DNA from: an uncultured Nitrospiraceae bacterium
Lineage (GTDB): Bacteria; Nitrospirota; Thermodesulfovibrionia; Thermodesulfovibrionales; Dissulfurispiraceae
DNA length: 64,000 bases
Direction of reading: 5' to 3'
NCBI GenBank assembly: GCA_963705105.1
Contig: CAVPIW010000006.1
Location: 96,001 to 160,000, forward strand
Positions 55,935 through 58,013 of the stretch are shown here, piece by piece (position 1 is the first letter of the stretch; the number at the start of each line of letters is the position of its first letter). The notes beneath the pieces were generated by a model. The model worked only from the letters and a program-made list of their open reading frames with translations. It made no database searches and was not told where the DNA came from. Position numbers and translations under genes: made by a program.

Positions 55935-56261
55935 TTAGCAGCCCTCGATCTTTTTCTTCTTCGGTTTGTCGGCAGGCTTGTCGGCCGGTTTGTCAGCAGG
56001 CTTGTCAGCGGCCTTCATGGCCTCCTTCGTGATCTTGCCTCCCTTCACCATGACCTTATCGCCGACCTTCAGGTCCTTTGCAGCCTTGTCCTCTACGACG
56101 GTCTCCTTGCCCTTGTCATCCTTAATGGTGAACTTGGCGCCCTCGACCTTCGAGATCGTACCCTTCATCTCCTTCGCCTCTTTCACCTCGGCTGCGAAAC
56201 CGAGACCGGCGACGCTCAGGGTGAACATAATTGCGACGATCAATGCGAGAATCTTCTTCAT
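55935..56261 (-). CDS. Small exported OB-fold-like protein with a (KPAD)n linker and C-terminal KKKKIEGC (ExtJ-like)
   Basis: Signal peptide MKKILAL...GFA; 12-bp tandem repeats encode ADKP; the single Cys is the last residue. Confidence 0.75.
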   Translation of the reverse strand: MKKILALIVAIMFTLSVAGLGFAAEVKEAKEMKGTISKVEGAKFTIKDDKGKETVVEDKAAKDLKVGDKVMVKGGKITKEAMKAADKPADKPADKPADKPKKKKIEGC

Positions 56262-56313: not shown

Positions 56314-56329
56314 AGCAACTCACGTGCCA
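56314..56329 (-). promoter_or_regulatory. sigma54 (-24/-12) promoter
   Basis: Minus strand TGGCAC-GTGAG-TTGCT, a consensus match. Confidence 0.75.
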
Positions 56330-56415: not shown

Positions 56416-57510
56416 TCAGTCCTTCATCGGCTTGATGAACATGAAGTAGGCCATAGTCCAGTTGCCGAGAATGATGAATACCGTCGCCACGATGCTCTGC
56501 AGGGCAAGCGCCGACATACCTGTCAGCGAATGGCCGACTGTTCAACCTCCCGCCGTTGCGGCGCCGAAACCCATGACCATCCCGCCCAGGAACACCCGGA
56601 CGAGCTCAGAGGGGTCCTTGGGGGCTGTGAGTTTGTATTCGTTCAGGTCCTTGGCGCTCAGGTACGCGCCGAGGGGCACGCCGATGACATAGAGGGCGCT
56701 CCAGGTCGCCACGCCGATCCCGAGGATGCCGAACATGGGATCGAAGGGAGCGCTGCTGTTGCCCGTCAGGGCAAACATGAGAAAGTCGATGAGCGGACCG
56801 GAGAACGACAGGCCCCTTGCCTGGCCGCCGTAAAAGTAGGATGCCCACCATGCCACGATGACGAGCAGGCCGACGACAAATCCGCCGACGGACCAGGACC
56901 ATCCCTTTTTCGGCCCCTTTGCGAAGGGATTGCCCTTGAGGATCACAGGGATCAGGATTGCCGCGATAACGGCGATGGTGATCCATTTCGCCTCTATGCC
57001 CCCTCCGAAGAGGTCCCAGAGGGCAAGGCTCGAAATCTCCGTCTCACCCTCTCCCAGGGCGAATTTAAAGCTCTTGATGTACTGCATGACAGGCTTGAGG
57101 GGACCGTGATAGGTGGCGATGAGAGAAGCGCCGAAGCCGAAGGTGGCGATCGTCGCGGCGAACTGTCCCTCGCCCTGTTTATACAGCACACCGCTTCCGC
57201 AGCCGCCGGCCATGACGATGCCGAGGCCGAAGATGTATCCCCCGATGATCGCCGAGATCGGCGAGAAGGACTGGCGTCTCAAGCCGAATTCACCGAGAAA
57301 CCCGAGGTCCTCGATAAGGTTCGCACCAATAATAGCAACCAGGAGAGCGAGTAACCATGAACGGAACAGCGTAAGATCGTCTATAAAGATCACGTCTCTA
57401 AATGCTGTGTTCATTCAATATCTGCCGCGCTGAAGGACAAAGCCGAAAGCGACGCCCATGAGGATGCCGCTCAGTATGATCATGATACTGGCTTGTGGAA
57501 TCCCTTCCAT
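56416..57510 (-). CDS. yeeE: YeeE/YedE sulfur/selenium transporter, predicted selenoprotein (364 aa, TGA at codons 32 and 323)
   Basis: AAGGAGG RBS and ATG at 57510; in-frame TGA at 57415-57417 (LQRGRY-U-M) and 56542-56544 (AGG-U-TVGH), both at conserved YeeE Cys positions; the central GGCGSG keeps Cys. Confidence 0.85.
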
Positions 57511-57553
57511 GTAACCCTCCTTAGTTCTTTACTGTTCAGGCCAAAGGCCCCTG

Positions 57554-57721
57554 TCACCAGGTGAATACCCTGTCACAACTCTCTATGAGCGTGACGATCC
57601 GGTCATAATCTTTGCATTCCGTCAGATTGAGCACTTCCACGGTGTGGGATTTCCTGTGCTCATCGATGATCGTCCGGACGCATTCGCCCGGATCGGTTTT
57701 CAGGATGTGCAGCACGTTCAT
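57554..57721 (-). CDS. Small DsrH/TusB-like protein
   Basis: MNVLHILK...DYDRIVTLIESCDRVFTW, similar to the DsrH C-terminal Y..(F/L)V.L.......(T/S)W. Confidence 0.55.
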   Translation of the reverse strand: MNVLHILKTDPGECVRTIIDEHRKSHTVEVLNLTECKDYDRIVTLIESCDRVFTW

Positions 57722-57737
57722 GGATGACACATCCTCT

Positions 57738-58013
57738 TTAATAACACAGCACCGCGTCGTATTCGAGGAGCCGCCGGCCAATCTCCTCAGTCGGGAGATG
57801 CACGGTCCCGCTCTCACCCGGCATATTGCTCACAACCTTCAGGCTCAGTTCCCCGGCCATGGTGAGGTTGAAGGCGATGTCCGGGTGGTCGCCGATCCGG
57901 TTGTCAAGTATATACAGATCCACGCTATGGAGGATCGAGAGTCCCACGCCCATCCTGATGCCCTCAGCCTGCCTGTCCCTGACGACGACGGCGATCCGTT
58001 TTCCGCCCGCCAT
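57738..58013 (-). CDS. DsrF/TusC-like protein
   Basis: KRIAVVVRDRQAEGIRMGVGL...LLEYDAVL. Confidence 0.55.
   Translation of the reverse strand: MAGGKRIAVVVRDRQAEGIRMGVGLSILHSVDLYILDNRIGDHPDIAFNLTMAGELSLKVVSNMPGESGTVHLPTEEIGRRLLEYDAVLCY

Follow-up and report, generated by a model that had tools for sequence, protein, structure and literature searches.

How transporters of the YeeE/TsuA family move sulfur, through a hydrogen-bonded channel or by a covalent relay, is unsettled, as is the role of the YTD cluster in sulfur disproportionation and oxidation. The locus considered here raises the question of whether a natural form of such a transporter carries selenocysteine (Sec) at two of its three pore positions (Sec/Cys/Sec), a version that would make both matters testable. 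It lies in a window of 64,000 nucleotides (the whole stretch of DNA that was analysed) from contig CAVPIW010000006.1 of an uncultured Nitrospiraceae bacterium. On the minus strand, one frame running from ATG 57510 to TGA 56416 is interrupted only by TGA at codon 32 (QRGRY-U) and codon 323 (AGG-U-TVGH), and positions 32, 104 and 323 are the only Cys or Sec residues of the read-through product (Table 1). A preliminary description had reported this twice-broken frame, YeeE sequence in its downstream parts and a gene hidden from the ORF track. All three claims were borne out: translation gave no further interruption, PF04143 (Sulf_transp) was matched over its entire profile (1-310 of 310, E 2.5e-66, 224.8 bits against a cut-off of 27), and table-11 ORF calling at the locus returned a 290-aa middle piece only.

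Table 1. Features of the dsrEFH-yeeE locus in window coordinates
Feature	Coordinates	Strand	Basis and remarks
dsrE type II-like gene, 100 aa	58029..58331	-	PF02635 just under cut-off; 63% identical to D. thermophila JZK55_17690
dsrF type II-like gene (YTD conserved hypothetical)	57738..58013	-	Position and sequence like D. thermophila WP_203472008
dsrH type II-like gene (YTD conserved hypothetical)	57554..57721	-	Position and sequence like D. thermophila WP_203472007
Shine-Dalgarno AAGGAGG before Met1	57516..57522	-	Sequence; similar motif in double-TGA relatives
yeeE/tsuA-family gene	56416..57510	-	364 aa when both in-frame TGA codons are translated (U32, C104, U323)
TGA codon 32, predicted Sec (Cys22 equivalent, cytoplasm side)	57415..57417	-	Alignment; side according to PMC7449682
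SECIS-like hairpin 1	57384..57400	-	6 bp, loop CGUGA; TAGAGA-CGTGA-TCTTTA; weak but invariant
TGC codon 104, central Cys (Cys91 equivalent)	57199..57201	-	Alignment to S. thermophila YeeE
TGA codon 323, predicted Sec (Cys293 equivalent, periplasm-side thiosulfate site)	56542..56544	-	Alignment; site according to PMC7449682
SECIS hairpin 2	56509..56528	-	8 bp, loop GGUA; CGCTGACA-GGTA-TGTCGGCG; compensatory changes

The read-through product matched 6LEO with an E value of 3.9e-47, its alignment to S. thermophila YeeE running from residue 12 to residue 360, with U32, C104 and U323 falling on Cys22, Cys91 and Cys293 of that protein. The residues R38, R/K111, E114, R232 and E291, which match conserved Arg/Glu residues of YeeE, are all kept. 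An AlphaFold model, in which Sec was entered as Cys and which is silent on selenium chemistry, reached a pLDDT of 89.4 and a pTM of 0.89 with an 86-row alignment as input (single-sequence input had given a pLDDT of 41). In a Foldseek search the predicted model resembled YeeE structures and nothing else (6LEO, E 1e-19, TM 0.82 by query and 0.91 by target; next unrelated fold, E 0.03). Its first helix (residues 9-28) precedes the first TGA, and the helices at 324-363 follow the second. Judged by alignment and predicted fold, the frame is a complete and intact YeeE/TsuA transporter gene.

The source genome (99% complete) is equipped for Sec insertion. The presence of selA, selB, selC and selD, which the preliminary description had named as a check, was established for all four: selA, selB and selD scored above curated cut-offs in profile searches, and a tRNA-Sec of 98 nt is present. 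The selD gene itself contains a TGA. Because TGA is otherwise the commonest stop among long ORFs of this genome (632 of 1154), site-specific recoding under an unchanged genetic code is indicated. Among the 36 genomes with a double-TGA match, selA was found in 34, the two misses being 79-81% complete. Presence of selA does not discriminate, since most genomes with Cys-only forms have it too.

The two codons were also compared among relatives. Within the family, 63 of 68 genomes have a match and 36 have one with two TGA codons, and neither TAA nor TAG was found inside any match in these 68 genomes. A pattern requiring TGA at site 323 yielded 59 loci among GTDB species genomes, titled nearly all as Nitrospirota, Thermodesulfovibrionales or Dissulfurispiraceae; one of them (L080) was dropped, there being no YeeE at that place. 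Removal of this locus and of 14 duplicates reduced 97 loci to 82, comprising 37 of the U-C-U form, 20 C-C-U, 21 C-C-C and four truncated ones kept out of the tree. In the 78 full-length non-redundant homologues (37 U-C-U, 20 C-C-U, 21 C-C-C), the equivalent of Cys104 is Cys in all 78, and no TGA was found at any other position. Site 32 is TGA in 37 and Cys in 41, and site 323 is TGA in 60 and Cys in 22, so that Cys/TGA alternation, a further check proposed at the outset, was seen at exactly these two sites. The 37 double-TGA genes encode proteins 66-81% identical to the window's YeeE and represent kin, not independent events; a protein search supplied 14 of them, and the other 23 were matches to the pattern, in which TGA was compulsory at site 323 and site 32 was left unconstrained. 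A separate metagenome pattern for site 32 gave 37 matches, with TGA at site 323 in all 27 readable ones (not deduplicated against the genomes). In a phylum sample of 301 genomes, 117 had a match, and all 18 matches with two TGA codons lay in Dissulfurispiraceae; eight matches had one TGA (two of them located), and two with one TAG reach the last position of the query. One locus titled Chloroflexota (L105) is the same sequence as a family member (G004) and is no evidence of spread to another phylum.

The pieces that a conventional gene call would discard appear to evolve as coding sequence under purifying selection. In the 37 double-TGA genes, third codon positions take most changes both before the first and after the second TGA, and protein identity is 79% before the first TGA, 86% after the second and 71% between them. 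Terminal stops in these genes are TAA in 15, TAG in 14 and TGA in eight, and internal stops are all TGA; a Shine-Dalgarno-like motif precedes the start in 35 of 37. The earlier argument that two random nonsense mutations at exactly these sites are unlikely gains force from the 36 of 68 family genomes that share two TGA codons without any TAA or TAG. The machinery and the Cys/TGA alternation likewise support its proposal that two of the three relay Cys are Sec. Comparison thus gives strong support to recoding, very likely with Sec at both in-frame UGA codons, and the residues are predicted as such.

Both UGA codons are followed by hairpins at the spacing originally given, 14 nt after TGA 32 and 13 nt after TGA 323. 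The bSECIS model described in PMC13188914 calls for a loop of 3-9 nt, a stem of 4-16 bp and an energy of at most -7.5 kcal/mol, with G in the first two loop positions and a distance of 16-37 nt from the UGA, and the same source records that some bSECIS elements fail it. The claim that both hairpins fit bacterial SECIS spacing with a G in the apical loop held, as did stem and loop size (20 nt at site 32, 21 nt at site 323). The energy of hairpin 1 in the window's gene amounts to -2.4 to -3.5 kcal/mol, short of -7.5; the energy limit is passed by hairpin 2 in 59 of 60 genes and by hairpin 1 in eight of 37. Hairpin 2 (-13.3 kcal/mol) is more stable than 99.95% of synonymous recodings, and it covaries beyond both kinds of control: pairing is kept in 94% of cells against 86% in shuffles and at most 45% in slid controls, and there are 25 double changes against 7.4 in shuffles. 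Hairpin 1 is not the minimum-energy fold in the window's gene, where 63% of 2000 synonymous recodings fold equally well, no better than chance for this gene alone, and over 37 genes its pairing probability within 63 nt of sequence has a median of 0.13. Covariation is confined to a single pair, the closing one, 27 genes having C-G there and 10 having U-A. A longer stem pairing the first UGA with downstream sequence was rejected, being unconserved among relatives.

What points to the first element is conservation rather than stability. Only six codons are invariant among 119 degenerate columns with an invariant residue; five of them (codons 38-42) form hairpin 1, and the sixth is the loop of hairpin 2. 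All 37 metagenome matches share one and the same 15-mer of hairpin 1, although the search pattern left most of the hairpin free. Invariance at synonymous positions is limited to TGA forms, and alignments of the Cys forms gave no consensus structure at this place. SelB would almost certainly use hairpin 2 for Sec insertion at U323, and in all probability hairpin 1 for insertion at U32.

The gene order leading into the transporter is dsrE-dsrF-dsrH-yeeE, and the dsrH-like gene stops 43 nt before yeeE, a spacing that suggests a dsrEFH-yeeE operon. The dsrE-like protein keeps Cys61 in 94 of 94 homologues and had no match in the PDB. The cultured Dissulfurispira thermophila has the same double-TGA locus (L139), with the dsrE-like protein, dsrF- and dsrH-like genes and then yeeE, whose middle piece is exactly the 289-aa NCBI protein 'transporter [Dissulfurispira thermophila]'. 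The supplement of PMC13293266 enters this organism under 'YeeE-DsrEFH type II', with disproportionation of both S0 and thiosulfate and a YTD cluster lacking TusA. The alignments of Novak 2026 (PMC12998232 supplement) use WP_203472006-009 for YedE, two hypothetical proteins and DsrE, the YedE being aligned from Met33. Since the orthologous locus was used in published YTD alignments and is listed as YeeE-DsrEFH type II, the window's yeeE is, by orthology, the YTD-cluster transporter, for which transport of sulfane sulfur to TusA, DsrEFH and DsrC has been proposed (PMC13293266). Sec itself is not tied to DsrEFH, because dsrE type II is adjacent in a minority of double-TGA genomes (12 of 36, or 12 of 37 loci) and also occurs near Cys-only yeeE genes; with the window's query it was not found in 23 of the 36. 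No tusA or yeeD adjoins yeeE, the four TusA-family genes of the source genome all lying elsewhere. In the source genome dsrA scored above cut-off, and dsrB, dsrC and dsrMKJOP-like ORFs were named by eye.

Downstream of yeeE lies a gene for an ExtJ-like small protein (55935-56261, minus strand; NF040942 above cut-off), and such a gene adjoins 33 of the 37 double-TGA yeeE genes as against five of 41 others. A functional link was set aside and the association treated as synteny, because trmJ is also conserved (19 of 37) and a motif TGGCAC-N5-TTGC, which resembles the sigma-54 -24/-12 consensus, lies between yeeE and the extJ-like gene (56315-56329, minus strand). Of the 37 double-TGA genes, 16 have this motif on their downstream side; all 41 other full-length genes lack it there.

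The history of the two sites was examined with a quick maximum-likelihood tree of the 78 proteins, with Sec written as Cys and SH-aLRT support only. The U-C-U genes form a single branch (SH-aLRT 98) within which one C-C-U gene is nested; its sister branch consists of C-C-C genes, and further C-C-U genes lie on several deeper branches. On the simplest reading, Sec at the outer site would be old in the order, and Sec at the inner site would have been gained once in the family. At site 32 the C-C-U gene inside the double-Sec clade (L079) has TGC; its hairpin 1 differs at two places, and upstream of the site an R has become S (RSRY). This gene appears to be a natural revertant in which hairpin 1 decays. 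The double-Sec clade also differs from its relatives at eight further positions that are almost confined to it, including W52, Q112, W204 and T295, and Q112, lying between the equivalents of the YeeD-binding R98 and E101, may reflect a changed cytoplasmic partner. In the Cys sister group, a LysR_Sec_metab homologue adjoins five of 25 loci (L041, L042, L167, L168 and L185, where the selenium-metabolism LysR lies upstream of a Cys-only yeeE) and yedF adjoins three (L042, L045 and L167); neither is found at any of the 37 double-TGA loci. In Methanococcus, HrsM represses Cys isogenes (PMC11097638), and by analogy the LysR genes give a modest hint of Sec/Cys isoform switching. A split-Soret-like gene also lies near yeeE in eight of 25 Cys loci.

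With regard to mechanism, the three Cys of YeeE (C22, C91 and C293) form a row through the membrane that runs from C293, at the thiosulfate site in the periplasm, to C22 on the side of the cytoplasm; the published model is a hydrogen-bonded one (S-H...S), which the structure supports (PMC7449682). The same source reports that C22A still complemented in S. thermophila YeeE and that all three Cys are essential in E. coli, and Cys17 of YeeD has been placed next to C22 (PMC11073785). The reading preferred here, given a probability of roughly 0.6, is that the two UGA codons encode Sec in an intact YeeE/TsuA protein whose Sec-Cys-Sec line passes sulfane sulfur inward by covalent exchange. The first step would be an attack by U323, at the periplasmic face, on polysulfide or on the sulfane sulfur of thiosulfate. 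The sulfur atom would then pass through C104 to U32 at the cytoplasmic face, and U32 would hand it to a TusA-type carrier encoded elsewhere, from which it would reach DsrE and DsrC of the Dsr pathway. A selenol has a pKa of about 5 and is a strong nucleophile and a good leaving group; a selenolate is a poor hydrogen-bond donor and cannot donate an S-H...S bond. Repeated exchange of Cys for Sec fits covalent chemistry better, because the selenolate cannot donate the hydrogen bond of the published model. Substrate, direction and chemistry of transport are what we infer, the chemistry from these general properties of selenols. The preliminary description had envisaged a thiosulfate relay through three Cys; the three pore positions do match, and in a YTD/DsrEFH type II context the substrate need not be thiosulfate.

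Several other explanations have to be set against this one. Two stops in one frame could betray a pseudogene, a sequencing error or TGA read as Trp, and 59 of the 120 closest database homologues are indeed middle pieces of 289-291 aa. Such explanations retain a negligible probability and are refuted by the identical two codons in dozens of genomes, by purifying selection on both flanks and by alignment of the TGA sites to Cys instead of Trp; TGA, the commonest stop of long ORFs, moreover ends the window's yeeE too. It is very improbable that codon 32 is a true stop with re-initiation at the adjacent ATG, which would leave a 31-aa first helix and a one-Sec protein lacking the Cys22 equivalent. 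Met33 directly follows the codon (TGA-ATG), hairpin 1 is weak, C22 is dispensable in S. thermophila YeeE (PMC7449682), and in split PmpA/PmpB-type proteins just the other two Cys are present (PMC11582611). Yet every double-stop match has TGA at this codon, TAA and TAG never occurring there, whereas true stops turn over; a Shine-Dalgarno motif precedes Met33 in none of the 37 double-TGA genes; and, because Met follows Cys in 30 of 41 Cys forms, the ATG after codon 32 is inherited. Hairpin 1, with bSECIS spacing and a loop G, is also invariant and decays in the revertant L079, and the first Cys is essential both in E. coli YeeE (PMC7449682) and in SoxT1B (PMC11582611).

Other rivals accept both Sec residues and dispute what they do. 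The protein might pass intact thiosulfate non-covalently, as TsuA does, with Sec serving only to resist irreversible oxidation or representing a nearly neutral swap. This is unlikely, even though the predicted fold is identical in kind to YeeE, the conserved Arg/Glu residues are kept, Cys-only forms are common in selA-positive relatives, and the published YeeE model is hydrogen-bonded (PMC7449682). Synonymous codons frozen for two SECIS elements across 37 genes are a cost that suggests selection, yeeD/tusA is absent beside yeeE, and thiosulfate is reported not to have persulfidated cable-bacterial TusA, DsrEFH type II or DsrC (PMC13293266). The chances are slimmer that the protein deals with selenium species, or that it is a transporter or sensor gated by selenium; the weak first SECIS would then allow full-length protein only when selenium is ample, and a Cys-only paralogue would be the back-up. 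A near full-length, stop-free paralogue is present in 16 of 36 double-TGA genomes, the sister clade is all-Cys and is the one with LysR_Sec_metab and yedF neighbours, HrsM offers a precedent, and an extJ-like gene follows nearly all double-TGA genes. On the other side, the protein falls far below the cut-offs of the selenium-YedE models (46 against 200 for TIGR04112, 88 against 350 for NF033796), a selenium importer that itself needs two Sec would presumably be an unlikely design, the link to selenium regulators concerns the Cys paralogue at a minority of loci, and no full-length Cys paralogue of YeeE was found in the source genome. Back-up regulation is in any case compatible with the covalent relay too.

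Among known systems, the closest are the YeeE/TsuA proteins themselves (S. thermophila, PDB 6LEO/6LEP/8J4C/8K1R; E. coli YeeE), with which the window's protein shares full length, domain order, fold, three pore positions and the conserved Arg/Glu residues. It differs in having the outer and inner Cys encoded by TGA and in lying behind dsrEFH type II with no adjacent yeeD/tusA, and it scores below the TsuA equivalog cut-offs (NF052577, 249 against 400 bits; NF041049, 149 against 645); no model in the NCBIfam search was above cut-off. The dsrE-dsrF-dsrH-yeeE order is common to the window's locus and the YTD cluster (PMC13293266, PMC12998232, PMC13047784), the window's locus having no tusA; one Desulfobulbus YTD YedE has its halves in the opposite order (PMC12998232 supplement). 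SoxT1A and SoxT1B of Hyphomicrobium denitrificans also belong to the YeeE family and have been proposed to transport sulfane sulfur that serves in oxidation or signalling, and all three Cys of SoxT1B are essential; both are Cys-only in a sox/sHdr context, in contrast to the Dsr context of the window's YeeE (PMC11582611). The protein is also distinct, by its scores against TIGR04112 and NF033796, from the selenium-metabolism YedE/FdhT group, and PMC5322559 served for further comparison.

The selenoprotein status of the family is already known. YeeE/YedE is catalogued as a predicted selenoprotein with one Sec and the motif GUxSG (WP_012471001.1; PMC13188914, PMC9312934), comprising five proteins in five organisms in the supplement of Peng 2016. 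The window's protein shares with this entry the Pfam family PF04143 and a predicted Sec, but is a full-length single chain with two Sec in the motifs RY-U-MN and GG-U-TVGH, neither of which is GUxSG. The other YeeE of the source genome is a split two-gene form (G000:C6:641483-642531; L007, L008) that has an in-frame TGA in DG-U-PSG with a hairpin of -13.8 kcal/mol, and this motif aligns to the U323 site and fits GUxSG; Sec at the outer site is thus probably the one already known. The literature searched, with incomplete coverage, contained neither a two-Sec YeeE nor Sec at the Cys22 site; YeeE is unmentioned in the deep-Sep main text, and the word 'Selenocysteine' is absent from the main texts of PMC13293266 and PMC13047784. 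Three things appear to be new: Sec at the inner site, the double form as such, and the recognition that the YTD transporter of a cultured disproportionator is of this form.

In a natural Sec/Cys/Sec line, each end of the pore would hold an atom that is chemically distinct and can be traced. Nature also supplies controls in the C-C-C and C-C-U relatives and in a revertant, and the double form is available in a cultured strain. A wider proposal, tentative and with the odds somewhat against it as a whole, is that the YTD transporter of Dissulfurispiraceae, D. thermophila included, is a double selenoprotein moving zero-valent sulfur by a covalent Se-S-Se relay, and that its Cys paralogues are low-selenium back-ups. 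If true, the YeeE family as a whole would work by group transfer and not as hydrogen-bond channels, and Dissulfurispiraceae would need selenium to take up sulfur for disproportionation or oxidation. The annotation is also corrected. Of the 120 closest database proteins, 59 consist of the middle fragment, in which the first helix, the final helices and two of the three pore residues are missing, and the truncated D. thermophila product was used in a 2026 YedE phylogeny.

Some minor observations complete the picture. One database protein (P0006) starts at Met33 and has Cys at the third site, possibly a U-C-C form or a contig-end artefact. Among RNA-labelled runs the best shares were 0.28 or less; codon 32 is covered by low-depth contigs from four such runs and codon 323 by one, and the changes listed include none at the TGA codons. 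These contigs come from relatives and may be DNA, and they were set aside as a sign of expression. In the source genome, a third dsrH/E/F-like trio with tusA, Cys-containing and a candidate for either type I or TusBCD, directly follows the dsr cluster but is encoded on the other strand (G000:C2:49554-50915). Within another dsrE/F/H-like trio (L125; G000:C12:315735-316058), a DsrE-like protein has a TGA in U-G-G-C, the motif UxxC being a known selenoprotein type. Finally, two tandem MccSep/ExtKL-like multihaem cytochromes of the source genome (G000:C6:765303-768132) each have a TGA in PDG-U and a hairpin, and the Sec of MccSep is reported to be essential for polysulfide reduction in Geobacter (PMC13510729); these cytochromes speak for the preferred reading.
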